Below are positions 25,192 through 51,961 of a DNA stretch of 64,000 nucleotides, one piece after another. The stretch is taken from UHGV virus genome UHGV-1376088. One strand, 5' to 3'. The notes under the pieces were generated by a model. That model was not told the DNA's origin. It saw only the letters and a program-made list of their open reading frames with translations, and searched no databases. This DNA is from a virus. Each line of letters begins with the position of its first letter. Within the stretch, counting starts at the first letter, position 1. The translations under genes were made by a program, and so were the position numbers.

Positions 25192-28100
25192 TTAGTAATT
25201 TCTATTGTCAAATGTTACTGTTGATCTTTGATTTGTATCGCCTTGAATTAAGCCTCTTAACCCCTGCTTGATTCTGGCATCAGAATAACCGCTAATTACG
25301 TGTCCATTGATTGTTATAGAATTCGGGTCATTTCCCCAATCTTTTACATAGCTTGTTTCTGATGTTCTTCCTTCCAATACAGGGGTTGTTCTAGCTGTTG
25401 GAGCATTATACATAGGTGAGCTTGGATTTGGAGTTTCGGATCTGCTAATCATAGCCAATCCGGCCATTCCTGCCGCGCCTAAAATAAGTTTGTTCTTATT
25501 GTGTTTTAATGTATCTAAAACGCTATAAGCACCGTCCTCTATTTTATTAATGGTACTAGAATTTGGCTCAAAAGGCAACACTTCGGGACCCACTGGGCTG
25601 TTTCTAGCGGCGGCAGCAGTTGCTGCAGAACGCCAATTAGAACCACCGTGCTTACTGCCGACCATACCTGTCGGATCACCTAACACTTCTTTCCCATATT
25701 TACCTACAGACTTTCTAATTGTGTCAATAGATTTCTGGATAGACCTTCCAACATCATCATCTGAGTGCTGGTATAAAGACCCCATAAAGTCACCAATAAT
25801 GCCACCAAGCTTGTCAAAGTTTGCGCGTTTACCTCGGTTTGACTCCATGAATTCTTCTATTTGCTCAGCTAGATTTTCTGACACTCCACCCTTGTTTGCT
25901 AAACGAACAGACTTAAGAGTGTTCTCTTGCATCATGTAGGCTGCCTGGTCAGCGATGTAATATCTTGCCCTAATTTCTTCAATTGCAGCTTTTCTCGCAG
26001 CTTCATCCATTTCTATTCTTGACAACAGCTCCATCTCTTCGTCTTTTGCTCGTTTTAGTGAGCCTTCTACCAATTGATGGAATGCAGTTACCCTAGGGGC
26101 TTCAATATCACGTTCTTTACCAGACATGATATTTTCGATCAGCTTTTTAGTTGGATCACTGACGCCGGAGATATTGGTAAACTTCTTATTAGCCTCATTA
26201 AGCTTTGGTGTCAATTTGGTAATTGCTGCTTTATGACTTTTCACCATCTCTGCTTGGCGTTTCATGATGGCAGCCATCTCTTTATTGTGCTTAGCGAAAT
26301 CTTTAGACTTAGTATCTAGAACGGATAGCAATGCTTTGTCATCGTCAAAGTCACCGGAATTCCATTTCATCATCTGGGCATCCATGCTAACGGCCATACC
26401 ATTTTTTATATTCTTATCGACAATTATCTCTGTGCTAAGAACAGAGTTTGGACCAGTTGCAGGCTCACGAGTGAATAGGCCATGAACAGGAAGCTTTCCT
26501 TCCTCGTCCATAACCCTAAACATTCCGCTGTCGCCTATCTCTTGATACTTAAACCTCTTCTTGTCAAGACCATACTCAGAAGCGGCCTCTTCGGATATAA
26601 ATACTCTTATCTTATCCTTATTCATACCAGCATCGAACACTGCCTGTTGAGCATGAGTTAACGGTTGAACTGTTGAATATGAGGCGTTCCTATAATTTCT
26701 ACCGGCTGCCGCTTTTTTAAGTGGAGAACCAGTTACATTCTGAAAATCCTTATATTCCTTAAATGCATTCATATATGCTGTAGCTGCAAACTCTTCTGCA
26801 ACTCCGCCTATACCTTTGGCATTAAAATAGTCAGACAAAGAAAGAAGTAGATTTCTTCTAATCTTAGTTGCCTCTTTTGTGGCATCCTTACCATTAGGAA
26901 GTTCTGCATATCCGCTGATATTGCTATCTAGAATTGGGATGGATAAAGACTTATGGTTTTTAAACTCTTTGGCCATTCCTTTTGGAACTGGCAGGTCAAT
27001 ATTTAGTATTCCATCTTGTGGCTTAATATGGCTTAGCGAGCCGCCTTCTTCGAATGCAGCAATACGTCTTGCTTCGTCCTTATGAAATAGGTCTTCAATT
27101 TGAATAGCACGTTCTCTTTGGTCAGCATCAAATACATTACCAAACTGATGACCATTCTCCATTTCCATAGCTCTAGCTTTGACCTCATATATTGCATCCA
27201 TATTGACTGTTGTTAAAGCATCTTTTAGCTCATGTGAGTTTGTCAGATTATCGAATTTACCTGCGGCCATCCATGACATTTTCTGTCCTCGACTTGATTC
27301 GCCAGTAAGAGCGGCTGTACCTGGACGTAAACCTGCTAGATTGTATAAACCCATTTTTGCACCAATGGACTCTAGGCCCATATAGTCTGCTTTTATTGCA
27401 TTATACATTTGGCCGTAACTAATTTTGCCTGAAGAATATAGATTCTGACGTTTACTTGAGGCTTTAATTAGTTCTGCCATTGCTGATGATATATCAGTAT
27501 CTTTGCCGATATTTATTGCTACTGTTGAACCGTCACCAAGTGCAACTTTGAATACGGAAGAGTTGCCTCGTTTAACAGCCTTATCGTGTGCTTGTGATAA
27601 ATTTCCAAGCATAGTGCCCAATGCAATATTTGAGAACTTAGGATCTTCGACTGCTTTTGCTGCGAATAAGCTTGCTCTAGCCTGTTTAACTTCTTTACCG
27701 GCGGTGTTTGAATCTATTCCAGCTTCTGATAGCTTAGCGAATGAAGATTTCAAATCCTTTAGCGCTTGTGGGGCGTCGTCTGGAAGCTCTTCGGCCAGAT
27801 CGAATCCACTATTGGTTATAACTTCTCCGATTATATTTTTTGCCCTATTAATTTGGCTATTATCTCTGAAGTTATTAACCTCTAAATTTTGTAGAGTATA
27901 ACCGGCCTTAAAGTCTTCTGAACGAACATTGATGTCTCTGTATGTACCTCTAACCTTTGATAGGGCAACATCCATCTCTGCGGGGTTCTGCTCTACGAAC
28001 TTCTCAATGGCACCTCTAAATTCTTTTGGAGAGAAATGGCTACGTCCTTCGGGTAATACTTTTTGAAGCTGACCATGTCTCTCGAGATTTCTTGTATTCT

Positions 28101-30192
28101 TTGACGACACAACGACTGCGCCGTTTTCCATTGAGATAGATCCTTCTTTTTCAAATCTATCTATGATTTCTTTCAATGCGAAATCGCGCTCGGTCCTGTG
28201 AGTGGATGTAGACTTAACATCGTTAAAGATTTTGATACCAGAATTTGAATCTGTATCTGTAACAATATTATTTTTGCCTACAAATTTATATCCATCTCTG
28301 GTGTTTTCAATTCTTGAAACTGTAAATGAGTCCACTGTTTTAGGAATCGTATATTCCTTACCTCCAAAGAATCCAATACTCTCTCCGCCCTTGTATATGA
28401 CACTGTTTCCGTTTTGAATTTGACCAAGCTTAGCGATTTGCTCTTCAGTTCCGGTAAATGCACCTTGTCCAAGCTTAACAGTTCCTGGCGCATTAAGATG
28501 AATACCTTTAAGCATTTGTTCGGTCTTACCATCTTCGAGCACCATACCCATGACTGCGCTACCAATAGTATGATTAAAATTGCTGTCGTGACCTGCAATT
28601 GATGCTAGAATTGCTCCGCTAAAATTGTGACCAAGCCCTTGCTCTACTAGTAATTTAGAGGCACCAGCAATACGTTTTGTTTCTTCGTGTGTTGTATTTG
28701 CAAGATCAATTATAGTGCCTCTTGATACTGTACCAGTAGATCGTTCAGGGTGTGGTGATATACCAGCGATTGCTTGTCCCGCCTGCTCTATGCTAGATAC
28801 GGAATATGTTCTTTGACGGATATTTGATGGAATTGTAGATAGACCTGTTTGATCAATCATTGCCTGATTGATCGTGTTCATTATTCTTCGTGAATCTTCT
28901 AATGAGCTGGCATCTTTCATTCTTACGATTTTTCCATCTTCGGAAGAACTGAATTGAAGTTTTGTATCAAGAGATGGAGCCCTAACTACATTGCTTCCAT
29001 CATCTGGTCCAACATAAGCACCAAGACTGTTTACTTTCTCTAGCGCCTTACCGTATGGTGTTCCTTCTACATGGCCCATAAATCCTGCAACTTCAAGATT
29101 TGTGAATCCATCAATTACGGCATTATCAGCAATAGTAGAGCTAATAATGACACTTTTGCCATCTGATGACAGTGAGGCAAGCTCTATTCCACCCAACGTA
29201 GAACCAATAGAGTCCGCAAATGGTTGGTACAACTTCCCTTCGTATATATTGCCGTTCTTGGCATATTGTAAGACCCCGTCTCTTTTTATTGGGATAAGGT
29301 CTTTTATAACTTCTCCGTCTGGCATTTTAATTGAGATGTCAGAGTTTGAAATATCAATTGCGGCGCCGGGATAGAAATTACTGATATTGCGTGCAAATCT
29401 TTCTGCAAACGCATTATCGTGCCCAAGTGTTCCAGATAGATAACCTTTAAGGGCATTTATCTTCTCTTCTATACTTGCTGTTCTATCAATTGAAAGAGAC
29501 CCTATATTGGGAACTTCTTTGTTTTTAACCCAGCTCATATCAACAGTTCTTAGCTTAGAGGCATAGTCAATCTCTCCTGCTTTTACTGCTGAAGAAATCA
29601 TCTCATTTGATGATGCGCGTCTAAGAATTTTGAAATGCTCGTCGTTTATCTTTCCTGAAGAAATTAGGCTTGAAAGTTCTTCTGCGCTATATTGACCGCG
29701 TATAAACTTCATTGCGCCGCTTTGACCTAAAGTTTCCGCTATATCCATATTCGACAAGGAGTTGAAATTATGAAGTACAGCATTCTCCCATTTAGATATA
29801 GAACTATTAGTTCTATCAACGGCAGCACTTCTCATAGAATCGGTCATGATACCCTTATTCTTTTGAGCCTGTTGTGTTGCCTCACGAAGACTTCTTCGTC
29901 CGGAGAATCTAGTCATAGCATCATAACGCTTGGCCTGTCTTTGCATCTCCGAACTGTAGCCATCTTCTGTTAACGCTCGATTTGCCCTGCTATTAAGCTT
30001 AGTGTGGTCGACTGCAATATCAGCGGCACCACGAGGGGCCCGCTCTCTTCTATTTGATTTAACGACTTCAATTGAGGAACCAATTAAAGCACCTAATCCA
30101 ATGCCAGCGATGGATGAAATCGGACTGTCAATTGGGTCACCTGCCATAAAGCCGACGGTCGCACCGCCGAGCACTAGATTATTCATTGCCAT
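25192..30192 (-). CDS. Giant virion protein (1666 aa). It has an N-terminal glycine-zipper hydrophobic segment, a long coiled-coil near the C-terminus and an internal NSGDFDDD motif. Putative ejected internal or tape-measure-like protein.
   Basis: N-terminus is MAMNNLVLGGATVGFMAGDPIDSPISSIAGIGLGALIGSSIEVV. The C-terminal region is coiled-coil-like (...EMELLSRIEMDEAARKAAIEEIRARYY...). No enzymatic domain securely recognised. Confidence 0.5.
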   Translation of the reverse strand: MAMNNLVLGGATVGFMAGDPIDSPISSIAGIGLGALIGSSIEVVKSNRRERAPRGAADIAVDHTKLNSRANRALTEDGYSSEMQRQAKRYDAMTRFSGRRSLREATQQAQKNKGIMTDSMRSAAVDRTNSSISKWENAVLHNFNSLSNMDIAETLGQSGAMKFIRGQYSAEELSSLISSGKINDEHFKILRRASSNEMISSAVKAGEIDYASKLRTVDMSWVKNKEVPNIGSLSIDRTASIEEKINALKGYLSGTLGHDNAFAERFARNISNFYPGAAIDISNSDISIKMPDGEVIKDLIPIKRDGVLQYAKNGNIYEGKLYQPFADSIGSTLGGIELASLSSDGKSVIISSTIADNAVIDGFTNLEVAGFMGHVEGTPYGKALEKVNSLGAYVGPDDGSNVVRAPSLDTKLQFSSSEDGKIVRMKDASSLEDSRRIMNTINQAMIDQTGLSTIPSNIRQRTYSVSSIEQAGQAIAGISPHPERSTGTVSRGTIIDLANTTHEETKRIAGASKLLVEQGLGHNFSGAILASIAGHDSNFNHTIGSAVMGMVLEDGKTEQMLKGIHLNAPGTVKLGQGAFTGTEEQIAKLGQIQNGNSVIYKGGESIGFFGGKEYTIPKTVDSFTVSRIENTRDGYKFVGKNNIVTDTDSNSGIKIFNDVKSTSTHRTERDFALKEIIDRFEKEGSISMENGAVVVSSKNTRNLERHGQLQKVLPEGRSHFSPKEFRGAIEKFVEQNPAEMDVALSKVRGTYRDINVRSEDFKAGYTLQNLEVNNFRDNSQINRAKNIIGEVITNSGFDLAEELPDDAPQALKDLKSSFAKLSEAGIDSNTAGKEVKQARASLFAAKAVEDPKFSNIALGTMLGNLSQAHDKAVKRGNSSVFKVALGDGSTVAINIGKDTDISSAMAELIKASSKRQNLYSSGKISYGQMYNAIKADYMGLESIGAKMGLYNLAGLRPGTAALTGESSRGQKMSWMAAGKFDNLTNSHELKDALTTVNMDAIYEVKARAMEMENGHQFGNVFDADQRERAIQIEDLFHKDEARRIAAFEEGGSLSHIKPQDGILNIDLPVPKGMAKEFKNHKSLSIPILDSNISGYAELPNGKDATKEATKIRRNLLLSLSDYFNAKGIGGVAEEFAATAYMNAFKEYKDFQNVTGSPLKKAAAGRNYRNASYSTVQPLTHAQQAVFDAGMNKDKIRVFISEEAASEYGLDKKRFKYQEIGDSGMFRVMDEEGKLPVHGLFTREPATGPNSVLSTEIIVDKNIKNGMAVSMDAQMMKWNSGDFDDDKALLSVLDTKSKDFAKHNKEMAAIMKRQAEMVKSHKAAITKLTPKLNEANKKFTNISGVSDPTKKLIENIMSGKERDIEAPRVTAFHQLVEGSLKRAKDEEMELLSRIEMDEAARKAAIEEIRARYYIADQAAYMMQENTLKSVRLANKGGVSENLAEQIEEFMESNRGKRANFDKLGGIIGDFMGSLYQHSDDDVGRSIQKSIDTIRKSVGKYGKEVLGDPTGMVGSKHGGSNWRSAATAAAARNSPVGPEVLPFEPNSSTINKIEDGAYSVLDTLKHNKNKLILGAAGMAGLAMISRSETPNPSSPMYNAPTARTTPVLEGRTSETSYVKDWGNDPNSITINGHVISGYSDARIKQGLRGLIQGDTNQRSTVTFDNRNY

Positions 30193-33100: not shown

Positions 33101-33966
33101 GGTTCATTAACCATATTGAAGCCTTGGGCAACCGCCTGCCCTACAACAGACTTCATCCATTCCTTACCTATGCTAGCATTTTTATCTGCTGCTATGATTG
33201 TAAATGGATTATGTGCTGGAACATTTTTTGAAAGGTCTCCAACTTCTTTCTTTGCAAAGAATGAGGCACCTTCGCCGACAGCTATATGTCTACGCAGTAT
33301 TTTATTGTAATTAGATGTAACAGAGTGACCTGGCTCAGTTCCGGCAAATTCAGTTAATGTAAGTCTTGTGTTCTCAATAACCACATTGCCCGATGAGTCT
33401 AATAGCTTACCTTTTGAGTATTTAAGACCAGACTCAAAATCTGCATCTGTTAATTCACGCTCACCATACTTTGACGATAAAAATTTGAAATATCTTTTCT
33501 GGGCTTTCAGTAAATCTGATGAAAATTCAAATTCAGATTCTGCTGTTGCGAATGGCGTTAGGATATGTGAAGTGTTAAATGTTCTTAAAATAGAAAAAGG
33601 GGAAAGCTCCTCGAACGCCCTTGCCACGTTCATAGACAAGTTTGCTAAGGTAACTTTCCCCCCGCCGAATACGCTAAGAGCATCCTGCTTTGTTCCTCTA
33701 ATAGAGTCAGCAAGATAGCTAAGATTAACATAGCGTTCTGCTTTTCGTTGCACTTCTTTATTCTTTAATGCCTTATTCGCCAATACAATAGCTTCAAGTG
33801 TCAGTCCGTATTTCATGACCGAACCGATTATATCTTTGGCATCTTGCTCAGATTTATTTTCCTCAATTGTCTGAGCATCCATTAATATTCTACGATGAGC
33901 TAGACTTCCATCTCTTCTGTCTCTATAATCGTCTAGAGCAGACCATCCTATATTGGCTGTTATCAT
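30196..33966 (-). CDS. Giant virion protein (1256 aa) with Gly/Ala-rich hydrophobic segments. The best positional candidate for the tape measure protein, since it directly follows the chaperone-like genes.
   Basis: Segments such as ...AALAAGFYALDNASKVIGTDGSGFGQGITEGLATTFLGAKLL... and ...RGAAIGALLALPFLPGALIG.... The gene order is tube, then chaperone-like 161-aa and 176-aa genes, then this gene. Confidence 0.5.
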   Translation of the reverse strand: MITANIGWSALDDYRDRRDGSLAHRRILMDAQTIEENKSEQDAKDIIGSVMKYGLTLEAIVLANKALKNKEVQRKAERYVNLSYLADSIRGTKQDALSVFGGGKVTLANLSMNVARAFEELSPFSILRTFNTSHILTPFATAESEFEFSSDLLKAQKRYFKFLSSKYGERELTDADFESGLKYSKGKLLDSSGNVVIENTRLTLTEFAGTEPGHSVTSNYNKILRRHIAVGEGASFFAKKEVGDLSKNVPAHNPFTIIAADKNASIGKEWMKSVVGQAVAQGFNMVNEPLGFLEETGGTLINKDSTLFKMIGKYGRINPNATSESTIKELTTGYAKHGITKLAALAAGFYALDNASKVIGTDGSGFGQGITEGLATTFLGAKLLYAETISDRFEEYRQEQEYVAPGSTSLLKLAGFPLAGAMAGGTFAYGRRALPAAIANDGYIKSTREAARESFIFGRNIATLAVNTPVQDALAVGTRARRFATRGAAIGALLALPFLPGALIGESSDEIREEYIYGKDVSIRKNRGWFSSSTPIEGEGIKYFTKNWYQRLMAGNKDKILYGDQDTKEDLNPFLSPFDYLRNPYRLEEMHQGDMPYPVWGMDVSMGGWIGRGLQMAFGDAIKPDLINPRMKELTSELQESGEPQIIPALSITPNVSNKQLSLIGEGKSTYGELAKYDPNTESANYIVSSGLDFIGLKGWAASGVLKDFGLGIPDLKTQYARSGEATNIAKDFEAQNLGGMLGAADVTRRIIPMSADVTGERFNPLKNTASPEWLPNGGYFNDFSRGAFWDKVENGYDRLPGKGYETWNPELSGVDPNDYPDIDKFKILSDVAFGSNEYYKMHEKMEDLYRRKVAGEETEMSDEDAARFEEIYIQSQERSRKKRFFEYKTEEELDGISMWGRMLGSLWESTTHNAELSTERLTFFRPAGKLLHQRTAIEDYVKTQLSEGDTALWNKPYEHFIRPFAEDSYKYIDSEHVPEYIQERRNVDNYFDALEFYKQMQIYRKSAGVNSYEASIAKQKASRTVYGAVASGLDTRQDVESAYGALSDNERAYFSSFVNAKESDRGKISRIVDENNTSEMYKMLWARKDAIDNGEDISALIQQEEQDLINDNHSAYMAYKNSKDADIGISFREYVQELRAASLIEEATGIPTEDFAGWDPRIEIKDVKLRALQLSKEDVREYGFWQSDEDDLSRQSYILNEDQVTTQLASIKETRARREFQRSLLVKDQLMKQGIFAKDIRFSNTGFSDQNINIG

Positions 33967-34493
33967 ACCGGAGGTCCTTCCCTTTCTTCTTCCTGTTTTA
34001 CAATAGGTGCCACTTCATTAGGGAATGCGACATGGCAGGCTGCATACATTTCAAATAGGTCGTTGATTGGAATATTTTTTACTTCTGTGTATTTTATTCC
34101 AAGAAACCTAGATATAACTGCAGCCATAGCCTCTACCATAGGAACAGACTCTACAGCCCTATCGTATGCCTTAAAGGGATCGTCGACGTATTCTTTTGAT
34201 TTTATAAATATAATTTTACCAACGGTAGATACAAATCCCGCTGAAGAACTATTGTAGTCGACCCCTTTTGGAATACCTGGCACATCTATAACGCAAGATT
34301 TAAATATCTCTTCGTATAGCTCATCTTCGTTTGCGCTATCCTCTATGTTGATACGCATAGCTCTATCTAGCTCAGTCATAGACATTAGTCTAGCCAAGAC
34401 AGATAGATTTTTAAACATTCGCCCCTCGATTTGAATAGGGGTGTTATTAAAGGGGATAACAATTGTCCCCGTCTTCAAATCCAATGCACTCAT
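33963..34493 (-). CDS. Hypothetical protein (176 aa), possibly a tail assembly chaperone-like protein.
   Basis: A small gene between the tube paralogs and the first giant protein. TAATG overlap with the upstream gene. Confidence 0.3.
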   Translation of the reverse strand: MSALDLKTGTIVIPFNNTPIQIEGRMFKNLSVLARLMSMTELDRAMRINIEDSANEDELYEEIFKSCVIDVPGIPKGVDYNSSSAGFVSTVGKIIFIKSKEYVDDPFKAYDRAVESVPMVEAMAAVISRFLGIKYTEVKNIPINDLFEMYAACHVAFPNEVAPIVKQEEEREGPPV

Positions 34494-34978
34494 TATAGAA
34501 TCTTAATTTGTGAATATGCTTGTTGTAATGGAACAAATCCTGAGCGGTACATAATTTGCTCTTTTAGTGTAGAGATAAATCCTGCTGGAGCAGTAGTCAA
34601 AAATTCCTGCTTCGCTTCAGGATACAATAGGCAGCGGCGTACTACCGAGTCTTCTGCTCTAACCTCATTGTCCATCATTCCCTGTTTAATCATGTTGGAA
34701 TACTCTTGGCGTCTTAATACACGCCAAATGAATATATCCTTGCCACCCAATACTGATGATACATGAATCGTGCCGTACTTCTCTAGCCATGCTTCAATAT
34801 CATAGAGTTTAGGCGCATCCTCTTTATCTGAAAGAGCGTTAAGAAGAATATCGATATCAGTCTGTTCTTTTTGTTCTTCTTCGATATTTTCTTTGGCTTG
34901 CTCTAACTGCTCATGTTCATCTGGAGATAGATCATCTGGATTTAACGATTCTAGTCCTTCAATTTTTTCAACTCTCAT
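34493..34978 (-). CDS. Acidic hypothetical protein (161 aa), possibly a tail assembly chaperone.
   Basis: Highly acidic N-terminal half (DDLSPDEHEQLEQAKENIEEEQKEQTD). It occupies the position that gpG-like chaperones take in myovirus tail modules. Confidence 0.3.
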   Translation of the reverse strand: MRVEKIEGLESLNPDDLSPDEHEQLEQAKENIEEEQKEQTDIDILLNALSDKEDAPKLYDIEAWLEKYGTIHVSSVLGGKDIFIWRVLRRQEYSNMIKQGMMDNEVRAEDSVVRRCLLYPEAKQEFLTTAPAGFISTLKEQIMYRSGFVPLQQAYSQIKIL

Positions 34979-35925
34979 TCTGGAATTACCTCTTTAGCAA
35001 TAAATTTATATCCGTCAATTAACTGGCCATCTGAGCCGATATCTACTGAATGTTCATACCCAACTATTCTACATTCTACAATAGATATTCGTTGTTGAAC
35101 ACCCTCTGTAACAGCATCAGAATTATTATAAACCATATGAATAGTAAAGCTACCAAGGTCCGCCCAGTCTAATACAGACTTAGCCGATACCTGCTCGTTT
35201 TGATATTCTTTCAATTGCTTTCTATATTTGGCTAGCTCTTCGGATGTTAATTGGATTTGCTCATATGGGCTTAGGATTTTAAACTCATTGGTTCTGCCGC
35301 GATAATGCGCAATAACTCTAGCCAGATAATCTTTTTCTGCCTTATTGATTCTAATAATACCGTTTGTTAAGACATTGCCTCTGGCTAAAAAATCGTATCT
35401 ACTATTACCAATAGTGTAAATTGGTGTACTTGTTAGAGTCTCATTTACAGCGATTCCGGCCGCTCTGTCTATTAGAATATCGCCAATGTATATATTGAAA
35501 TCACTAGAAGAGAAATACTTTGTATACAGCCCATCGTATGATGCAGTTTGTACTTTCTTATGAGCCAATGCTCTTTCTGCGTCTGTTTCTCCCGGATTAG
35601 GATTATATGGCCTAGCCCTACCCTTTGAAGAGATAGCCGACATATTATCAACGGGGTCAACTTTGCTTGAACTCTTTGGGACGCCTTTTGGTTTAAAGTC
35701 CGTAGAATTACTTCTAGAGTCTTTAATTTGCGGATACATCTTTTCAATAACTGTTTTATCCACAGTGATCGATTTGCCCGGCGCAAGTCTTTTGGCAAGA
35801 GAATATTCTAGACCTATATTATATTCTCTAGACTGATTCTCTACGACATTACCGTCTACAGATACGACAATACCATTATCGGTATTCTCTATATTATATT
35901 TTGATTTAGCCATTATTTCTTCCAA
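34975..35925 (-). CDS. Tail-tube-fold paralog (316 aa), possibly a tube initiator or terminator-type protein.
   Basis: Its segment IAVNETLTSTPIYTIGNSRYDFLARGNVLTNGIIRI aligns with PIHTMGSPDARAIARGKRTCMGSCVF in the 234-aa tube protein. It also aligns with VPVYNLGNTNIDGFAIGKRYVAGSIV in the 466-aa tube paralog. Confidence 0.45.
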   Translation of the reverse strand: MEEIMAKSKYNIENTDNGIVVSVDGNVVENQSREYNIGLEYSLAKRLAPGKSITVDKTVIEKMYPQIKDSRSNSTDFKPKGVPKSSSKVDPVDNMSAISSKGRARPYNPNPGETDAERALAHKKVQTASYDGLYTKYFSSSDFNIYIGDILIDRAAGIAVNETLTSTPIYTIGNSRYDFLARGNVLTNGIIRINKAEKDYLARVIAHYRGRTNEFKILSPYEQIQLTSEELAKYRKQLKEYQNEQVSAKSVLDWADLGSFTIHMVYNNSDAVTEGVQQRISIVECRIVGYEHSVDIGSDGQLIDGYKFIAKEVIPE

Positions 35926-37313
35926 GTTTTTCTATGTGCCGCCGGGTCGACAATATTATCGCCTCCCCATAGCCCGCGCTTATTAGCCTTAGCATCATGA
36001 TATTTCTTCTTAATCCTATTAATATCTTCAGCTGACATGCCGGCTTGTCTTGCACCCTCTGGCTTAAACCACGCCAATCCTGCCTCTACTATTGCTTCAA
36101 CATATCTTGGATTGAAGAATAATTTACGACCGTAAACATCTGTACCTGTAATCTTTGTTACACCGTCATCAATGTCCTTATCCCATTTTCCATCGGCTAT
36201 ATATTTTTCGAGAAAGGCTTTTGCTTCATATCCATACTCTTGACCTTTATCTATATGGTCCCCTTTATCATGGTCAGTTTCCGGAGTATCAATGCCCATA
36301 AAACGCAAGTGAGTGTTGCCGTCTTCCTGCACTTGCTTAAACTTTGAGCCATCTATATTTCTGACATGCACATACACGGTATCGCCGTCATCCACAAAGA
36401 AGCCTGGAGCTGTTGATTTAAACGTCGCCTTATCGATATATTTATTATCATATTCAGAAGGCTTAGAACCGGATGTGCTGTCTGGGGCATCTGTTGCTCC
36501 CTGCTTACGATACTCTTCTCTTGCTGCATCTATATAGCTTTGAGGAACATTTGCTTCAGTTCCATTTCCTGCAAGCTGAGAGTAGGCATTGATTCGGTTA
36601 ATTTCATCTTGAGACCATGTGCCTTTTTTAACTGCATCGTTTACAGACTGATTCCATCTGTCGTAGTAATATGATGTGTCGCTATTATTATAATTTACAG
36701 CATCTCCTGATAATTGAGAGGCCTTTACACCATTGTATTTAGATTCGCCATATACAACGCTGCCAATTTTATTTCGCGTTTGTCTAGCATCTCTAGCAAC
36801 AAATGAAAGGGTATTTTCTGTGATAAGATCGTGGATTGAGTGAACTTGTCCAGAATTGATTAAGGTTGCCCCATAGATAACCTCTGAAACGGAGAACCCT
36901 CCATATTCTGAACTAAGAAGAATGATGATATCAAATGGCAAAATATCATCCGCCATTAGGTGATGATATGCCTTTTGTTTTTCGAGCTTTAATTGATAGA
37001 TAGAATCGACCGGTTCTTTAATTCCAATGCCGTCTGCGATGTCTTGCATGAATTGTCGAAGGTCGTCGTGTAGAAAGGATGTCTTAACGATAGATCCGGC
37101 TACATATCTTTTGCCTATGGCGAATCCGTCGATATTTGTATTGCCCAAGTTATAGACCGGGACTTTGTCTCTGAATATTTGATAAGACAGCGAAAGAAGA
37201 CTGCCCATGTAAAGATAGCCGTATCCAGGGAAGTTAAAAATAATGTGGGTGGCATCGCCACCCACAGAATGATATTCTTCCTTGTGTAATGGCTGATTTT
37301 TGTAATCTTGCAT
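35913..37313 (-). CDS. Tail-tube paralog fused to a C-terminal staphylococcal nuclease (SNase/thermonuclease) domain (466 aa).
   Basis: The N-terminal ~190 aa are paralogous to the 234-aa tube protein (DDILPFDIIILLSSEYGGFSVSEVIYG versus DQILPFDIVLASTNEFGSSTKMTIYG). The C-terminal region contains FFVDDGDTVYV...LRFMGIDTPET...YGYEAKAFLEKYI...DVYGRKLFF...EAIVEAGLAW. This matches the SNase motifs IDGDTVKL...FRLLLVDTPE...YGPEASAFTKKMV...DKYGRGLAY...EALVRQGLAK, including the Ca-ligand and catalytic Asp/Glu/Arg positions. Confidence 0.75.
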   Translation of the reverse strand: MQDYKNQPLHKEEYHSVGGDATHIIFNFPGYGYLYMGSLLSLSYQIFRDKVPVYNLGNTNIDGFAIGKRYVAGSIVKTSFLHDDLRQFMQDIADGIGIKEPVDSIYQLKLEKQKAYHHLMADDILPFDIIILLSSEYGGFSVSEVIYGATLINSGQVHSIHDLITENTLSFVARDARQTRNKIGSVVYGESKYNGVKASQLSGDAVNYNNSDTSYYYDRWNQSVNDAVKKGTWSQDEINRINAYSQLAGNGTEANVPQSYIDAAREEYRKQGATDAPDSTSGSKPSEYDNKYIDKATFKSTAPGFFVDDGDTVYVHVRNIDGSKFKQVQEDGNTHLRFMGIDTPETDHDKGDHIDKGQEYGYEAKAFLEKYIADGKWDKDIDDGVTKITGTDVYGRKLFFNPRYVEAIVEAGLAWFKPEGARQAGMSAEDINRIKKKYHDAKANKRGLWGGDNIVDPAAHRKTWKK

Positions 37314-37343: not shown

Positions 37344-38048
37344 TTAACGAGAGTTAAAGGTATCCATCGGCTCCCATGGAGATACAGAGCGGGCAATAAA
37401 TGAATATTGTTTCTCAGTAGTCAAGTCGTCGATAGAAATACCACCAGACTCGGATACAAACTCTACGCCGTAGATGGTCATCTTAGTAGAGCTACCAAAT
37501 TCGTTAGTAGAAGCCAATACGATATCGAATGGGAGAATTTGGTCAGCCAGACGAGCTTTTGTCAGATCGCGCAGACCTGAACGAATACCTTGAGAGGTAT
37601 TTAAGTCTAGTTTACCATATTCTGGATTCAATGTACCACCGCCACGGATGCCGTTGTTAGCTTTAGGATCGGTAGAACCATAAATAGCATTACGAGCAGC
37701 TTCTGGGATAGCATCTTGATATTGGCCATTGTTAATGTGTTTATACGTACCGCCACGACGATAGTTTGCGGTTTCATGTTTACCAAGCCACACGTCTGAA
37801 CGACCCATTTCGTCCATGATGTCAAACAGCGCTTCACGGTCAAATACTGTAAATACGCAAGAACCCATACATGTACGTTTACCACGCGCGATTGCACGAG
37901 CGTCTGGAGAGCCCATAGTGTGAATAGGCACTTTCTCACGGTCAAGACGATAAGAGATCATCTGCATGGTGCCGATTGGTTTACCAGCTAATACTGGTGT
38001 AATATCTACACCTGAAGTGGTGGCATTATATGTAACAAAATCTGACAT
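37344..38048 (-). CDS. Tail tube protein (234 aa).
   Basis: Lies immediately downstream of the sheath gene. Shares the strong translational-selection codon bias of the sheath gene (CGT/CTG/GGT/ACC codons). Has two longer paralogs directly downstream. Confidence 0.65.
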   Translation of the reverse strand: MSDFVTYNATTSGVDITPVLAGKPIGTMQMISYRLDREKVPIHTMGSPDARAIARGKRTCMGSCVFTVFDREALFDIMDEMGRSDVWLGKHETANYRRGGTYKHINNGQYQDAIPEAARNAIYGSTDPKANNGIRGGGTLNPEYGKLDLNTSQGIRSGLRDLTKARLADQILPFDIVLASTNEFGSSTKMTIYGVEFVSESGGISIDDLTTEKQYSFIARSVSPWEPMDTFNSR

Positions 38049-38093: not shown

Positions 38094-40349
38094 TTAGATT
38101 TCTAGGGCCAGTTTAACGGCTACGTTAATCTCACGCAGTTCAAATGCAGGAACGATAGTCAGAGCTACGTCCAGACTTGCACGTCCATTAACGATAGGAC
38201 GTTGATTCACTACATGCAGATATTTGACAATATGTCCTTGCTCTACCAGACGTTGCAATGCGCCTTCGATCGCTACGTCTACAGCGGCTAAGGTTGCCTC
38301 TGTTAGACCACGACCGATGAACGGTTGAACAACGTCACGAACAGCGTTAGAAGCCTCAGCAACAGCCATAGTAGTTGAGAGCAGACGGTAGTCTGAATCA
38401 GCAGTAGTAGCCAGTTCGCCTGAAACTACACGAACACTATTGTTAGTGGTTTTGAAGAATACGTAACCAGCACCAGTCAATTGGTCCAGTTTCAATTTTT
38501 TGATTTCGCCAGGCAATGAGATGCGAGGGATCAACATATTGGTAGTAGATACGCTAGCATCGATAGTAGTAATCAGACCGGCATAAACTGCTGCACCGTT
38601 GGTAACGATAGTGTTAGAACCAGCAGAAGAATAAGAAGGAGTTACGATTACTTGAGGAACTACAGACAGGAATTTACCAATATTAATTGGAGCACCGTTA
38701 GAGTCGGTAACAATAGCGCCATCTACGAATCCAGAAATGGTTTTGTAGAATCCGCGGCGAGTGTCTGCACGTTCAACCATATTGCGAAGACCTAGCAATC
38801 CAGTACCGTTAGATACGATGTTGCCCAGTGCGTCATATGTTGCAGGAGAACCGATCCAGCGGTTAACCTCATACTGAGACAGTGAACGTGGCATTGTAGC
38901 GCCGATGGTAACCAAGCAGAACTGTTCGTTTTCAGAAATAGTGTTTGCGAAGTTTGCTAACAGGTGAGCAAAGTTTGCTTCGTGATAACGTCTGTATACG
39001 ATAGGTTGACCGTTACCGTTAATATCGGCTTCAGCTGGATTAGCAGTAGTGGCAGTACCACGGTTTTTACGGTACAGAACTTTCTCAGTTGACCATTCGT
39101 ATTTCAATTCACCGTTATCTTCTGATACATAAACGTAGTCAAGACGGTCAAGATCGTTAGAGCCGTCAGCAATGTTCGGAGCATCAATTACAGCGTAGTC
39201 TGTAACAACAGAGATAGCATTAACTGATTCCAATTCTGCCAGAGCGGTATGAAGCAGTTCGTAGTAGTTTTTCCAAGTGGTATTGATATTGTCTTCGCCC
39301 TCTTCGTATTCGCCAGTAACAGCTTCACGTTTAGGGTCTACGGTGTACTCTACGATAATTGAGCTTTGTTCGCCAGGGGCTTCGGTAAGTTTCAACGCTT
39401 TAGCATCTGAACCGGCGCTGTCATTTTGAACGTTTGAATCCTCAGTTTTATCTTGGCCGGCAACTTTCACAACATCAAGAGTTACTTCGTAATCTTTTTT
39501 AGTGCCAGGAAGAACAAACTCGTCTTTATTACCTTTACCAATGAAGACTGCAGAACCTGCAACTTTACCGCTGGACTTGAATGTATACAGAACTTGAATT
39601 TCTTTGGCTTGTTCTGGAGCGGTAGTAAATTCTACATATTGAGAAGATGTGGCTTTATCCACTTTTACAGAGAAGTCTGTTCCAGAGTTTTTAGCTTCGC
39701 CATCAACGGTAAGTGTCTTAACGGTTACTTCGTCAGTTTTGGTAACGCCAGGCAGACTGAATTTGGTAGTAGTACCATTACCGATAAATTTAGCAGTGCG
39801 GCTGTACTCTTTCAGGATAACTTCAGAGAATGGAATTGGTTCAGTTGGTGTACCAATTTTTACTTTGGTATCAGGGTCGAATCCAAATACTTCTACTTGG
39901 TTACGGTTGATTTCAGAACCAGGTACGTTAGAGTAGACGATTTCGTTGCCTTTGAAGACAATCAGACATGCCTTACCGTCGTTGTTTGGACGAGGACCAA
40001 CGTATACTTTAAGATTGTCTACTGCTGATACTGATGCCTCTACTGCGGCAAGATAGCTATCTTTGCCGAAGATATTTTTCAGTTTAGCCTGCTTACCACC
40101 AATGCGGTACAGGGATACACGGCGAGCTCCGCCAATGAGAGCTTCTGACATCTTACGGATTAATGGAGAGTCTTGACCAAATACAGCAGCTGCACGGTTG
40201 GTGTCAGTCACTGGGTATAGAGCATTAGTCAGACCTTTTTCTGCGCGACCGATAATAAGTACGCGAGGAGAGCTATCAGTTTGGTCGATACGAAGGTTAC
40301 CATCCAGAAGCTCTAGGTTTACACCTGGTAAGTGTTGATATGTGGCCAT
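38094..40349 (-). CDS. Contractile tail sheath protein (751 aa).
   Basis: N-terminus is MATYQHLPGVNLELLDGNL...PRVLIIGRAEKGLTNALYPVTDTNRAAAVFGQDSP...GGARRVSLYRIG. This fits the conserved sheath N-terminal pattern (PG[IV].L.e...G...G.........FG...; compare T4 gp18 SPGIELKE...FGQP...GNDLRVVRAVD). C-terminus ...RASLDVALTIVPAFELREINVAVKLA matches the sheath C-terminal pattern (T4 ...RNEFVATFYIQPARSINYITLNFVA). Strong high-expression codon bias. Confidence 0.8.
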   Translation of the reverse strand: MATYQHLPGVNLELLDGNLRIDQTDSSPRVLIIGRAEKGLTNALYPVTDTNRAAAVFGQDSPLIRKMSEALIGGARRVSLYRIGGKQAKLKNIFGKDSYLAAVEASVSAVDNLKVYVGPRPNNDGKACLIVFKGNEIVYSNVPGSEINRNQVEVFGFDPDTKVKIGTPTEPIPFSEVILKEYSRTAKFIGNGTTTKFSLPGVTKTDEVTVKTLTVDGEAKNSGTDFSVKVDKATSSQYVEFTTAPEQAKEIQVLYTFKSSGKVAGSAVFIGKGNKDEFVLPGTKKDYEVTLDVVKVAGQDKTEDSNVQNDSAGSDAKALKLTEAPGEQSSIIVEYTVDPKREAVTGEYEEGEDNINTTWKNYYELLHTALAELESVNAISVVTDYAVIDAPNIADGSNDLDRLDYVYVSEDNGELKYEWSTEKVLYRKNRGTATTANPAEADINGNGQPIVYRRYHEANFAHLLANFANTISENEQFCLVTIGATMPRSLSQYEVNRWIGSPATYDALGNIVSNGTGLLGLRNMVERADTRRGFYKTISGFVDGAIVTDSNGAPINIGKFLSVVPQVIVTPSYSSAGSNTIVTNGAAVYAGLITTIDASVSTTNMLIPRISLPGEIKKLKLDQLTGAGYVFFKTTNNSVRVVSGELATTADSDYRLLSTTMAVAEASNAVRDVVQPFIGRGLTEATLAAVDVAIEGALQRLVEQGHIVKYLHVVNQRPIVNGRASLDVALTIVPAFELREINVAVKLALEI

Positions 40350-41644: not shown

Positions 41645-42284
41645 AACCTGTCTTGTAGAATTTTCCGTCCATCTCTAAATACTTGTCGGCAGCAACTGGC
41701 ATTATACTTCTATAGTTTGGATGGTGCCATTCGCGATTTGAAACGCGATTTGAGCAGTTCCATTTGCCTTTAACAAAACCATAAGCAAGTAACGTTGAGG
41801 CGTCATCTATTGCGGATAGAACATCATCTGCACATTCCTTAGATTCATTTGCAAATTTAAGAGCAGAACTTACATCGAATGTCGAATCCCTTTGAACTTC
41901 AAAATCTCCAAGAACCTTTTTAACAGATTGACCCTTAAGAAGTGTCCCATATAGTTTATTTGCAACACTAGATAAGGCTGAGCATATGACAAAGTCCCGC
42001 TTTATCATATACAGCTCTTCTTCTGAGAGATTGATTTTCTTTCTACGGATATAATTATCTATCCAGATTGACTTATTAAATATAATCTCCGAAATGTCTT
42101 TTGAGAATTTTTCTGTAAAAGAAACATTTTCGGCAGGGACATTTAATTCGATGTCTCGTATTGATGCGTAAAACGGACAAAGAGAAATCTCAGATGTAGA
42201 CTCTGCTACATCAACAGAGCCTCCATCTTTAAAATCAACTTTAAATCCGTATATTTTGATACGGTTATTCAATGATTTCCTCAC
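41601..42284 (-). CDS. Hypothetical protein (227 aa).
   Basis: ORF in the operon. Overlaps both neighbours by 20-44 nt. Confidence 0.4.
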   Translation of the reverse strand: MRKSLNNRIKIYGFKVDFKDGGSVDVAESTSEISLCPFYASIRDIELNVPAENVSFTEKFSKDISEIIFNKSIWIDNYIRRKKINLSEEELYMIKRDFVICSALSSVANKLYGTLLKGQSVKKVLGDFEVQRDSTFDVSSALKFANESKECADDVLSAIDDASTLLAYGFVKGKWNCSNRVSNREWHHPNYRSIMPVAADKYLEMDGKFYKTGYGHGNEQIPLYRRG

Positions 42285-45200
42285 CTATTCCAAGACTATC
42301 GCCTTTGTAATATTTGTATCTAATTCTATATGGCTTACCTATATCTTCATCGGAGAAGAATACAAGACCCGTATAGGGCTCTATTTTTACTTGTCCAGCC
42401 GAGATGTTTGCAGCGACTCCACCACGATTTGGCTTATCTGATTTTACGAAGAATTTAGGCTCAAGATCTAGGTAATTTGTATATACAACCTCTGCACTTC
42501 TGCCATCTATCTCGATATTTATCATATCTGGAGAACCGATAAAAGGCAACCCATAAAACACCGGATCGAATGTGCCAGACCGAGAAGCTTCATTTCCAAG
42601 TCTTGTGCATAATGCTCCTCTATATACATATTCAAATGTTGGCAATTTCATCTCTGGATCGACATTTATCTCATCGCCATTTAATGTGCCAGGAGTGGAA
42701 CTTGTAAAGCCAACCTTTATCGTACCGGATACCTTAGATGTTGTTACTGGCACTATAGTGACATAACTCATCTGATATGAACCAGAGGAATCAGATCCGG
42801 ATGTCCATATCACTTTATCGCCATCGTTTACAGTGACACCCATTTTTTCTGAATCAATAGTTATTGAGAAATTACTAGGATTCTGCAGCAATGTATTTGT
42901 AGGTAATAAAAAATCGTCTAAATAATTAGGCCTTTTCGTATTACAATGGTATGACACGCCTGACCCAATGTTGGATACAAATATATTTTTATAATTAAAA
43001 TATTCTCCAGAGCTTTGAGATGTTTTTATTGATATAAGGAATGTCCCCTTAAGTGTTGATAAGTCAAACTTCATTTTGGACGATCCTGGAAGTATATATT
43101 GTGGATAAGCATTATGGATATATCCTAAAAGGGTATGAGTCTTGTCTTTTGTTTTTAGTCTTCCGTCTCTTGTTAGGTACATATTTGTTTTTGTGCAAAT
43201 AGGGTGACGATATTTAGGTTTATTATTTTCCTCCGATACCGTACCAGACTGCTCAAATTCATTTGATACAGGCAAACAAGATTCCTCTATAGTAAATGAT
43301 GCAGTAGAAACATTGTCGTTAACGTAGGCATAAGTCCTGTGGAACACAAAGCAATCACCTGCAACGAAATTATCTCCTGATGCTAAGAATTGTACACCAT
43401 CTATTTCAAAATTACTTGATGATGTTTTAAATTTAGACTCTTTAACTTTTGTAAAAGACTGACTCTCGCTAGAATAATAATCAAATATATCTGGATTATC
43501 CTTGGATATACCTATATTTGGACCGGAAACTAATGTATAAGTTTTACTAAAACCGCTTCTTCTTACATCAAGAGACCATCTCCCATTGCTAATACTATTA
43601 GGATTCTCGCCTATGCCACTAACTATAGGATTACCATTACTGTCGATAATGGCATGCATAGTTTTAGAATATTCATTTGATGTTGAAGCACTCATATTAT
43701 ATCTATACTCATATCTTTTAATATCGCCATAAGCTATATTTATCGCTTCATATCCTACCATAACAGGACGTCCGTCAATAGCAATGCCCCATGCTGCACC
43801 TGGCTGAAGAGAATATTTCTCTGAGTTAACCATGTCCCTTATTGTTGTCTTCTCTGCCTCTGCCTTTTGTGGACCAATACATATCGGTATCAACGACACA
43901 CCATTGGATTTTTCACTACCAATTGGATATGATTGATAGTAATCTCTGTCTGAGCTATATGGCGTACCTGAACCCTTTTTCTCAGTCTTTAGTTCTATAA
44001 ATGGAATCTCTGAGTTGTAATAATGCGCTAACAGACATATACCAACACTATTACCGTCTCTAGATAACACAAATCCCATATTGCTATATTTTAATTTATT
44101 CTCATAATCAAATGCAGCATCGAATCCTGAACTTACACCCATTAGCTGTTTTTTAACAGTTGAGAATGGTTTAGTGTTCCATGTCTCACCCATGTTATCA
44201 GAATACATTATGCCGGAATCTGTTATAATTGCAACTCCGCCTTTGCCATTTCCAGAAATTGCATATACGCGTTCGATACCATCCTTTGTAACCCTCTTAA
44301 CAACAGGAGTCTCATCAGTATCGTTATCAAATTCTACCTTGTATAATCCGCTTTCACCACATCCGATCAATAGCCCCTTTTTGCTATCATTCCATGCGAT
44401 ACCAGTAATTTGTATACCTCTATTTTCATGTGGCAAGTTGGTCTCATCCAAGATTATATACCTTGAATTCCCTATAGATGTGAGTAGAACACCTTTTCTA
44501 ATAACGATAGCGATATTCTGTCCATACAGTGGCCATATTGCAGGAGAAGACTCATAATACATTCCATCCGGATGGTTATACTTTTTATACACCATACCAT
44601 TTATATTGCCAGGGTAGGATAGGTGCGGAATAGGTTCAAATGATTGAACATTGGAATTTCCATAATATCCAGAAACTATAGTTTTTCTAACCCTAAATTC
44701 AGAATCAGACAGCGATCCGCCTTTTAGTACATCAATCTCCCATCTTTCGGGAAGACCATATCTTTCCGTTGCGGATATTGCCTTTATAGACCCTGTACCC
44801 TTTTTAATGGATGATGCCTCAAAAAATGGTTTAATTGAGGAACTAATATTGACCCTTGTCTTTGAGAAGGTTGTACTAACACCTTTTCCATTGCTAATTT
44901 TTCTAATTGATTCTGGTGATATAGACCTTCTGCTGGCACCAACACAGCCTATGATACTTCCTGATTTTTTCATATCCTCATATGAAACATCGCTGATTAT
45001 AACTGGAGACATAATATTTTTATGACTATACCTATTTATAGTAGCATTCCTGTCGCTACCGGTAAATGCCCTCATAATAAGGCTGTTATATTGAGAACTT
45101 TTCATATTTGTGTCTAACAACCCAAATATTACTTTATCATCATCATCAATATCCCATGTTGTTGAGTCGATACCCATTCCACCTACGGAATCCTTATAAT

Positions 45201-45834
45201 TCAATGGATATGATATACTGCCTTCACCATGACCATCTCCGTTGTAGCTATACGACAGTACACCAGAAAGGTTTGTTATATACTCCCTTTCAGAGTCTCC
45301 TGATACTATAACCTTGTATGTTATATCCACTACTGTTGCAGAATCTTGCACTATAATCTCGTCCAAAGGTGTGTAGAACTCTGTTCCTTCAGTATTTATA
45401 TTTAAAGCTATTGTACCGATCTTCCTTACGCCAGAATCTGGGGCATATAGAACACCCTTGAAAACTATAACAGTTCTTCCACTAGAATCTTTATCATATC
45501 TTAAATTTTCTACACCAGTAACATCTGTTACAACCCTTGATGCCTGACCATCTTGGAATATGCACTTACCTCTTCTCCATCCCTCCTCGTCCCTATTGTC
45601 CATATAATAGTACGGTGTCTTTGGCATCCTATATGGCATAGTATATATAAAACTGATAGGATTACTACTGCTAGATTGTCTTATCATCAACGTATATGTT
45701 TCACCTATATACCCGGTATTAGAGAACATCATCTTTGCAGGGATTGTCTGGATATTTTTGCAGGATATCTCTTTCTTAATCCTGCCAGTTTCTTTGTCTT
45801 TTAATGTTATTGTAGGATAACCGTATGAGTTCAT
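42265..45834 (-). CDS. Large hypothetical virion protein (1189 aa), beta-rich. Possibly a neck, collar or head-fiber protein.
   Basis: Very long ORF between the head-proximal genes and the neck/sheath genes. No catalytic motif recognised. Confidence 0.45.
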   Translation of the reverse strand: MNSYGYPTITLKDKETGRIKKEISCKNIQTIPAKMMFSNTGYIGETYTLMIRQSSSSNPISFIYTMPYRMPKTPYYYMDNRDEEGWRRGKCIFQDGQASRVVTDVTGVENLRYDKDSSGRTVIVFKGVLYAPDSGVRKIGTIALNINTEGTEFYTPLDEIIVQDSATVVDITYKVIVSGDSEREYITNLSGVLSYSYNGDGHGEGSISYPLNYKDSVGGMGIDSTTWDIDDDDKVIFGLLDTNMKSSQYNSLIMRAFTGSDRNATINRYSHKNIMSPVIISDVSYEDMKKSGSIIGCVGASRRSISPESIRKISNGKGVSTTFSKTRVNISSSIKPFFEASSIKKGTGSIKAISATERYGLPERWEIDVLKGGSLSDSEFRVRKTIVSGYYGNSNVQSFEPIPHLSYPGNINGMVYKKYNHPDGMYYESSPAIWPLYGQNIAIVIRKGVLLTSIGNSRYIILDETNLPHENRGIQITGIAWNDSKKGLLIGCGESGLYKVEFDNDTDETPVVKRVTKDGIERVYAISGNGKGGVAIITDSGIMYSDNMGETWNTKPFSTVKKQLMGVSSGFDAAFDYENKLKYSNMGFVLSRDGNSVGICLLAHYYNSEIPFIELKTEKKGSGTPYSSDRDYYQSYPIGSEKSNGVSLIPICIGPQKAEAEKTTIRDMVNSEKYSLQPGAAWGIAIDGRPVMVGYEAINIAYGDIKRYEYRYNMSASTSNEYSKTMHAIIDSNGNPIVSGIGENPNSISNGRWSLDVRRSGFSKTYTLVSGPNIGISKDNPDIFDYYSSESQSFTKVKESKFKTSSSNFEIDGVQFLASGDNFVAGDCFVFHRTYAYVNDNVSTASFTIEESCLPVSNEFEQSGTVSEENNKPKYRHPICTKTNMYLTRDGRLKTKDKTHTLLGYIHNAYPQYILPGSSKMKFDLSTLKGTFLISIKTSQSSGEYFNYKNIFVSNIGSGVSYHCNTKRPNYLDDFLLPTNTLLQNPSNFSITIDSEKMGVTVNDGDKVIWTSGSDSSGSYQMSYVTIVPVTTSKVSGTIKVGFTSSTPGTLNGDEINVDPEMKLPTFEYVYRGALCTRLGNEASRSGTFDPVFYGLPFIGSPDMINIEIDGRSAEVVYTNYLDLEPKFFVKSDKPNRGGVAANISAGQVKIEPYTGLVFFSDEDIGKPYRIRYKYYKGDSLGIGEEIIE

Positions 45835-47039: not shown

Positions 47040-47064
47040 TATATATCCTTCTGGCGTACTTGTT

Positions 47065-48695: not shown

Positions 48696-48713
48696 ATTAA
48701 CCTTAGTTGAAGT

Positions 48714-51952: not shown

Positions 51953-51961
51953 ATTGTAGCC

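Follow-up and report, generated by a model that had tools for sequence, protein, structure and literature searches.

Background

Where phage tail proteins carry an enzymatic domain, it is as a rule one that degrades polysaccharide (a depolymerase) or peptidoglycan (a hydrolase). Here we describe a gene of the virus genome UHGV-1376088, located at positions 35913-37313 on the minus strand of a 64,000-nucleotide stretch (hereafter the window), whose 466-residue product combines a predicted tail-tube domain with a domain of the staphylococcal nuclease (SNase) family. Members of this family catalyze the Ca2+-dependent hydrolysis of DNA and RNA to 3'-phosphomononucleotides, and a conserved, apparently active version of such a nuclease on a tube-fold subunit is unusual.

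The closest described counterpart comes from Bacillus phage 0305phi8-36. In its GenBank record ORF140/gp140 is annotated as 'major structural protein... tail tube' and ORF141/gp141 (502 aa) as 'identified as virion protein by mass spectrometry; tail tube paralog'. The latter shares with the gene studied here its slot in the gene order (sheath, tube, gp141, virion protein, two chaperonins), a homologous tube domain and a C-terminal extension of ~300 residues. However, the two extensions are unrelated in sequence: a Pfam search found no domain in that of gp141, whereas here it consists of a linker and an SNase domain. Phage G likewise encodes two tail-tube candidates, gp179 and gp180, with the role of the second called unclear (PMC8570332). 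These are short proteins (242 and 189 aa) that lack an enzymatic domain, in contrast to the SNase-bearing second tube protein considered here. Baseplate-proximal rings of the tube fold are represented by gp54 and gp48 of T4, Pvc5 and Pvc7 of PVC and gp37 of Pa193 (termed 'baseplate tube'), none of which, to our knowledge, carries an enzymatic C-terminal domain.

Beyond tube proteins of phages, two further precedents are relevant. In secretion systems of type VI (T6SS), antibacterial effectors are paired with immunity genes, and the toxin domain of one specialized version of the tube subunit Hcp, Hcp-ET1, is reportedly of the HNH type. Such specialized or 'evolved' Hcp proteins, typified by Hcp-ET1, go back to Ma et al. 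2017, a paper cited by both PMC5471719 and PMC8262886, and the toxin domains that the latter enumerates where it deals with them are of the pyocin S-type, DUF2235 phospholipase and colicin-DNase kinds, with no SNase among them (PMC8262886). Closer to the present case, an SNase domain was noted in the hub homolog of the BtI1 prophage, with a purpose that was 'not obvious' (Hardies et al. 2007, PMC2147016).

Thus, extended tube paralogs, SNase domains on hubs and nuclease-tipped tube subunits of the T6SS are known already, and the sequences discussed here are public. An earlier note on this DNA, made from the sequence alone, had regarded the union of a tube domain with a nuclease as undescribed. 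Full-text literature searches retrieved no description of a phage tube-nuclease fusion, and the arrangement indeed appears to be undescribed; the gp141 extension and the SNase domain on a tail hub (PMC2147016) nevertheless stand as partial precedents.

Results and discussion

An SNase domain with a predicted complete active site

The gene begins with an ATG that follows, at 4-5 nt, the ribosome-binding-site-like sequence AGGTG and ends with a TAA codon at 35913-35915; the plus strand of the same interval is closed by stop codons upon translation. Three parts can be distinguished in its product, all encoded on the minus strand: an N-terminal tube-fold domain of the clade that we term tube B (residues 1-190; 36744-37313), a variable, partly helical linker (residues 191-300; 36414-36743) and a C-terminal SNase/OB-fold domain (residues 301-466; 35916-36413). 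The linker is the least conserved stretch of the family alignment, with an amino-acid identity of 26% against 73% in the tube domain, and an AlphaFold2 (AF2) model places helices in it at residues 211-230, 235-247 and 258-270 with a pLDDT of ~50-60.

The C-terminal domain, the only one of its kind in the window, was recovered by the Pfam SNase profile PF00565 with 41.7 bits (gathering cutoff 21; E 1.7e-10) across residues 336-449, covering profile positions 2-105 of 107. A phmmer search against PDB sequences matched staphylococcal nuclease chains alone (E ~1e-6). The AF2 model reaches a pLDDT of 85-95 over residues ~300-460, and in Foldseek comparisons it aligned with 1IHZ, 1STN and others at a probability of 1.00 (TMt 0.58-0.65, E ~1e-6 to 1e-5), with a TM of ~0.6 for 1STN and 1IHZ. 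Both the profile search and the structural superposition therefore bear out the SNase assignment of the earlier note.

To map the active site we aligned wild-type SNase with 26 family members spanning 33-94% identity using MAFFT. In this alignment the D309-G-D311-T312 motif (36378-36389, minus strand) corresponds to D19-G-D21-T22 of SNase, with D309, D311 (the Ca ligand D21) and T312 being invariant in all 26. The catalytic R35 and R87 are matched by R337 (36303-36305, minus strand) and, within a YGR motif, by R396 (36126-36128, minus strand), whereas the D342-T-P-E345 motif (36279-36290, minus strand) corresponds to D40-T41-P42-E43, which supply Ca ligands and the general base. R337, R396, D342 (the Ca ligand D40) and E345 are likewise unchanged in 26 of 26; P344 (P42) is invariant, and Y394 (Y85) is retained in 25 of the 26. 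Position 343 (T41) is occupied by T in 17 homologs and by A in the other 9, a variation that is tolerable because T41 of SNase ligates Ca through its backbone oxygen. The coordinates of these motifs and residues were confirmed by translation. All five motif pairs on which the nuclease assignment had originally been built, including DDGDTVYV/IDGDTVKL, LRFMGIDTPET/FRLLLVDTPET, DVYGRKLFF/DKYGRGLAY and EAIVEAGLAW/EALVRQGLAK, were reproduced by MAFFT, and the claim that the catalytic and Ca-ligand residues are conserved holds for D311, R337, D342, E345 and R396, with T343 varying as described.

One competing alignment deserves mention. The pairwise HMMER alignment pairs the IDGDT motif of SNase with the NIDGSK segment at residues 319-324. 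This segment sits in an 11-19-residue extension of the beta2-beta3 hairpin and is not conserved among family members. By contrast, D309-G-D311-T312 shows little or no variation and is placed by the AF2 model in the beta1-beta2 turn. Since both family conservation and the model favor DGDT over NIDGSK, the latter pairing was rejected and the alignment of DGDT given in the earlier note is correct.

In comparison with the closest relative (L005), the SNase domain has a dN/dS ratio of 0.026 and the strongly constrained tube domain one of 0.004, this pair alone being informative as synonymous sites are saturated in most comparisons. As judged from alignment and codon substitution, the SNase domain thus has a complete predicted catalytic and Ca-binding site and is under purifying selection, and the nuclease is apparently active. 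It has the fold and all catalytic and Ca-binding residues of Staphylococcus aureus nuclease A (Nuc, PF00565, 1STN) in common, but differs in sharing only ~25% identity with it, in a beta2-beta3 hairpin longer by 11-19 residues and in a longer helical C-terminal tail. Furthermore, Nuc is a secreted protein, whereas the version described here is fused to a putative virion protein. An exhaustive HMMER search with the SNase domain alone found 25 representatives among 1.84 billion at E<=1e-3, the nearest match outside the family being at ~1e-6, and a word-indexed search returned one match; with so few matches in the exhaustive search no donor lineage can be named. On present sequence comparisons, the domain is long diverged from other SNases.

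Distribution and age of the fusion

The identical 466-residue protein is encoded on a 186,050-bp metagenomic scaffold in ENA (ERZ28662767, ZHAN15-1_SAMEA2738129_METAG-scaffold_15) and on a second contig of 20.8 kb. We found 69 full-length homologs with 33-94% identity, 67 of which have a precomputed Pfam SNase match. A further 24 related loci, located on contigs 66-188 kb long, are present in IMG/VR. One public homolog bears the automatic name 'MAG TPA: nuclease-like protein'. Sample identifiers resembling those of the Human Microbiome Project, borne by many of the IMG/VR loci, are read by us as indicating that these phages are human-associated. A megablast search with 12 kb against the phage collection gave no match, and a scan of 185,579 reference genomes uncovered no relative, so those genomes offer no prophage or host clue. 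The SNase part might have been acquired by recent horizontal insertion; we rejected this because the G+C content is flat along the gene (0.39-0.42) and the fusion is kept down to 33% identity.

The tube-fold domain and a run of three tube genes

Immediately upstream, directly downstream of the sheath gene, lies tube A (37344-38048, minus strand; 234 aa), the presumed major tail-tube protein. In a BLASTP comparison, residues 120-174 of the 466-residue protein align with residues 167-220 of tube A (44% identity, E 2e-10), and a second collinear high-scoring segment pair joins residues 18-92 to residues 13-81 (31% identity, E 7e-9). The two proteins match the same PHROG families, and the family profile recovers tube A at E 9.4e-54 and the 466-residue protein at E 3.6e-60; no other open reading frame (ORF) in the window reaches the threshold of E 0.01 with the tube profile. 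The paralogy proposed in the earlier note is thereby upheld. Its description of the paralogous region as the N-terminal half of the protein is not, as residues 1-190 make up 41% of the length.

A tube profile built from both proteins and distant relatives retrieved 622 proteins, most of them ~190 aa long and encoded on contigs of 200-240 kb, one of which had been named 'tail tube protein' by its depositor. The full-length AF2 model, computed with a 26-sequence alignment, gave a pLDDT below 50 for the N-terminal domain, and residues 1-200 were consequently re-modeled with the 622 distant homologs. In the model the domain is a beta-sandwich that bears a long, lumen-forming beta-hairpin together with a single helix, as is typical of the tube fold, and matches of the tube half include several Hcp proteins. 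As the tube-domain profile found nothing among PDB sequences, the tube assignment is founded on this comparison of folds and not on sequence. Both tube ORFs also match phrog_9206, which is labeled 'major head protein'. We rejected this label because its members follow the sheath gene and have the tube fold. The region matched in phrog_9206 is the tail-tube domain, and the label looks like a propagated mis-annotation.

The gene that follows, tube C (34975-35913, minus strand), encodes 312 rather than 316 residues, and its ATG overlaps the stop codon of the 466-residue gene, with the last base in common (TAATG). Its residues 134-310, preceded by an N-terminal region of ~130 residues, form a third, divergent tube-fold domain: phmmer linked it at ~1e-9 with the third ORFs of related loci, many of which match the tube profile, and an hhalign comparison between the tube profile and that of the tube-C family gave a probability of 97.0% (E 1.1e-10, 153 columns). 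The locus is thus predicted to encode three tube-fold proteins in a row, which matches the tube and two adaptor rings of other contractile systems.

Orthology to the second tube paralog of 0305phi8-36

The surrounding genes are those of an uncultured, contractile-tailed myophage of ~186 kb belonging to the lineage of 0305phi8-36 and ME3. The window constitutes a structural module, with genes for portal, major capsid, sheath, hub and fibres, in which the sheath (751 aa) is followed by tube A (234 aa), the 466-residue gene, tube C (312 aa), two chaperone-sized genes, proteins of 1256 and 1666 aa, and the hub. This order is identical in Bacillus phage vB_BceM_WH1, Acinetobacter phage vB_AbaM_ME3 and Bacillus phage 0305phi8-36, and the sizes are often equal. 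By its sheath, the closest isolated relative is ME3 (38% identity).

By position and by sequence, the SNase-bearing gene is the predicted ortholog of gp141 of 0305phi8-36, the presumably minor second tail-tube paralog. BLASTP matched its residues 19-185 to gp141 at 6e-21, a stronger match than that to its own tube A (2e-10), and a tblastn search against phages matched WH1 gp100 and its counterpart in Edson alone. An insertion of 5 residues (the 'FPGYG' region) is common to the 466-residue protein and the second paralogs and is absent from first paralogs. We group it as a candidate member with 0305phi8-36 gp141, WH1 gp100 and ME3_31 as tube B. Other measures are less decisive. The identity of its tube domain is 34% to WH1 gp101 and 32% to WH1 gp100, and a neighbor-joining tree, in which a first-paralog clade (WH1 gp101 and tube A) stands apart from a second-paralog clade (WH1 gp100), puts the tube domain of the SNase family outside clade B, as a long separate branch that emerges at the midpoint root. 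Because the tree leaves the domain on a branch of its own, the orthology rests mainly on synteny, best hits and the shared indel. It lends indirect support to the virion membership of the protein, given that gp141 is annotated as a virion protein identified by mass spectrometry and a 'tail tube paralog', and that the gene order is conserved. The contrast between this annotation and the 'major structural protein' of gp140 would fit a lower copy number of tube B than of the major tube protein in the virion. The protein is accordingly a candidate tail component, as the earlier note had proposed from gene position.

Extra modules on second tube paralogs and on hubs

We ran the tube profile on all ORFs of 108 fetched loci. 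Each of the 108 has at least two adjacent tube genes, with a weak third match in 33. The first paralog is short throughout (155-281 aa), whereas the second has 300 aa or more throughout the SNase family, at one locus of a sister clade (L004) and, among 80 other IMG/VR loci (L029-L108), in 17. In these 17 it is 302-1367 aa long (e.g. L029 3893-6634, L032 3815-6592 and L060 3467-7570), although some of these lengths may include over-called N-termini as the start was taken to be the first start codon after a stop. Thus, extra modules attach to the second tube paralog and never to the first. In the sister-clade locus (10001-12564 of L004, a 206,775-bp Logan contig from SRR22387968), a second paralog of 592 aa carries a PG_binding_1 domain in the place of SNase, and the next gene, of 260 aa, also has PG_binding_1. 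The 0305phi8-36 protein gp142 gives a marginal PG_binding_1 match (23.9 bits, cutoff 23). Elsewhere the extensions of tube B reach ~1,100 aa, and Pfam searches of ten long ones found nothing but a sub-threshold fn3 match in L029.

Within the SNase family itself, the protein shares 96-99% identity with those of L015 and L024 in the tube domain and ~70% in the SNase domain. This suggests that the gene may be a mosaic, formed either through exchange of modules or through much faster evolution of the C-terminal part, with faster C-terminal divergence being the behavior expected of host-interface modules. The recognition of the second tube paralog as a carrier of modules is probably the most useful outcome of this comparison; it bears on the role of that paralog, a question raised for phage G and for phages like 0305phi8-36.

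A further connection is provided by the tail hub. The ME3 hub, ME3_37 (annotated 'baseplate hub protein'; KU935715.1 37999-44988; L109 2710-9699), contains an unannotated SNase domain (53.2 bits, residues 1126-1241) that retains DGDT and DTPET and directly precedes an M23 peptidase; BLASTP relates it to the SNase domain of the 466-residue protein at 2e-9. The corresponding hub of the window (19288-25182, minus strand; 1964 aa), an ortholog of ME3_37 (BLASTP 1e-58) with a Peptidase_M23 match of 104.9 bits, gave no SNase hit with Pfam. The ME3 and BtI1 hubs resemble the present system in having an SNase-family enzyme within a structural protein of the tail tip in the same phage lineage, but differ in that the carrier is a gp27-like hub, adjoining M23 in ME3, rather than a tube paralog. 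That related phages have SNase either on the hub or on tube B suggests a spatial equivalence of these two positions, and points to a tail-tip nuclease function for a domain whose purpose was 'not obvious' in 2007 (PMC2147016).

Location and function of the nuclease

With moderate confidence, we propose that tube B forms a minor ring at the baseplate end of the tube and that its six Ca-dependent nuclease domains cut nucleic acid that is extracellular or bound to the surface while the phage approaches and penetrates the cell. A single ring, presumably hexameric, would lie between the hub/tube-C layer and the tube-A polymer, placed much like gp48/gp54 in T4 and Pvc5/Pvc7 in PVC. The baseplate-end location is inferred from the PG_binding_1 domain of the sister clade and the hub-borne SNase of relatives. 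C-terminal additions of tube-fold proteins are displayed outside the tube, as in the decorations of lambda gpV, T5 pb6 and SPP1 gp17.1*; by the same token, the extension would emerge on the outer tube surface and the linker of ~110 residues would tether the six nuclease domains outside the tube wall at the tail tip. The tail would then probably carry six DNA/RNA-cutting domains, able to cut DNA derived from biofilm or lysis on the way to or through the envelope, in a role resembling that of depolymerases for polysaccharide and tail lysins for peptidoglycan. SNase-type enzymes require roughly millimolar Ca2+. The nuclease may hence stay inactive while virions assemble in the Ca-poor cytoplasm and work only once outside the cell, and this would explain the absence of an immunity gene. 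If it does act on extracellular DNA, human-associated phages would bear an anti-biofilm DNase of their own, which matters for the ecology of DNA-rich matrices and for the engineering of therapeutic phages.

Several observations weigh against this proposal. The SNase domain is near-neutral, with an isoelectric point of 6.3 (4.7-9.1 in the family) as opposed to 9.5 for S. aureus SNase, and the nucleotide-binding positions Y113 and Y115 are not conserved in it, nor is the equivalent of K84 in the family; given its charge and the changes at Y113/Y115, its substrate affinity or specificity may differ from that of the S. aureus enzyme. The model of the linker is of low confidence. The position of the ring is argued from analogy and domain swaps, and the tube-fold rings of T4, PVC and Pa193 have no detectable sequence relationship to tube B. 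Any generalization of second tube paralogs as an enzyme platform draws on two annotated domain types alone, as the other long extensions have no recognizable domains.

The lack of conservation at K84, Y113 and Y115 and the charge, which is near-neutral or acidic in many members, could instead signify that the domain is not a nuclease at all, but a module that binds or senses polyanionic wall polymers, DNA ends or Ca2+ itself in a Ca-dependent manner, or an enzyme that cleaves another phosphodiester polymer such as teichoic acid. The long divergence of the domain from other SNases and the wall-binding nature of the module in the sister clade agree with such a role. However, five catalytic and metal-binding residues are invariant down to 33% identity, as in an active hydrolase; SNase-like domains that only bind, for example the Tudor-SN repeats, have typically lost their catalytic residues, and we know of no SNase-fold teichoicase. 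We therefore regard a non-nucleolytic function as highly unlikely. A different objection concerns location: tube B might cap the head-proximal end of the tube or form a collar, and a nuclease displayed at the neck could act on free DNA, for instance in freeing progeny from a viscous lysate. Such a placement is quite improbable, considering that genes for the terminator and neck are usually found upstream of the sheath gene, a slot filled here by three small genes, that tube B is predicted to be translationally coupled to tube C and adjoins the block of chaperone, tape-measure and hub genes, and that both the PG_binding_1 variant and the presence of SNase in the hubs of ME3 and BtI1 suggest the cell-wall end.

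Yet another possible mode of action is one in which the tube-B ring crosses the envelope at the tube tip upon sheath contraction and delivers the nuclease into the periplasm or cytoplasm against nucleic acid of the host, a plasmid or a competitor. This would be the phage counterpart of specialized T6SS Hcp proteins with C-terminal DNase domains. The gene differs from these in lying in a phage structural module and not in a T6SS locus, in having an SNase domain rather than one of the HNH, colicin or pyocin type, and in being followed by a tube paralog: the next gene is tube C, with its overlapping start codon, and no immunity or inhibitor gene follows. Moreover, an SNase-type site needs Ca2+ far above the cytoplasmic level, the DNA of the phage itself would be at risk from a non-specific nuclease that enters along with it, and tube rings do not normally leave the tube. 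Injection into the cell thus appears unlikely. A broader version of the idea, prompted by the range of extensions on second tube paralogs, is that this paralog serves as a general carrier of cargo or effectors, like the 'evolved' Hcp and VgrG proteins of the T6SS, with SNase being a tail-delivered effector driven into the host envelope on contraction; we consider it doubtful. Equally doubtful are the roles that SNase might then have, namely take-over of the host, anti-plasmid or anti-competitor action, or the breaching of a DNA-containing surface layer, with the module movable between the hub and the tube ring. Were it true, virion-delivered enzymes of a new class would be defined, and the second tube gene found in jumbo phages of this lineage would have a function.

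Other features of the structural module

The sheath gene (38094-40349, minus strand; 751 aa) matches phrog_16991 'tail sheath' at E 8e-64 and is the source of the 38% identity to the ME3 sheath given above. Between it and the capsid genes lie large ORFs of 1189, 401, 217, 326, 449, 636 and 590 aa (42265-45834 and 45834-53734, minus strand), none of which had a PHROG match. Two small genes encoding 161 and 176 aa (33963-34978, minus strand) occupy the position of tail assembly chaperones. Their order and sizes are those of ME3_33 (161 aa, 'putative tail chaperonin') and ME3_34 (176 aa, 'hypothetical protein'), and the WH1 genes gp098 and gp097 are both annotated as 'tail chaperonin'. The protein of 1666 aa (25192-30192, minus strand) is situated in the slot of ME3_36, that of the tape measure; it gave no PHROG or Pfam match, and shows a Gly-rich hydrophobic N-terminus and an 'SGDFDDDK' motif. 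The module ends with the 1964-residue hub, a gp25-like baseplate protein and collagen-like fibres. Among the latter, a protein of 292 aa (1091-1969, minus strand) has many matches to collagen-like and tail-fibre PHROGs; it probably represents a tail fibre with collagen repeats, encoded where the structural module ends.

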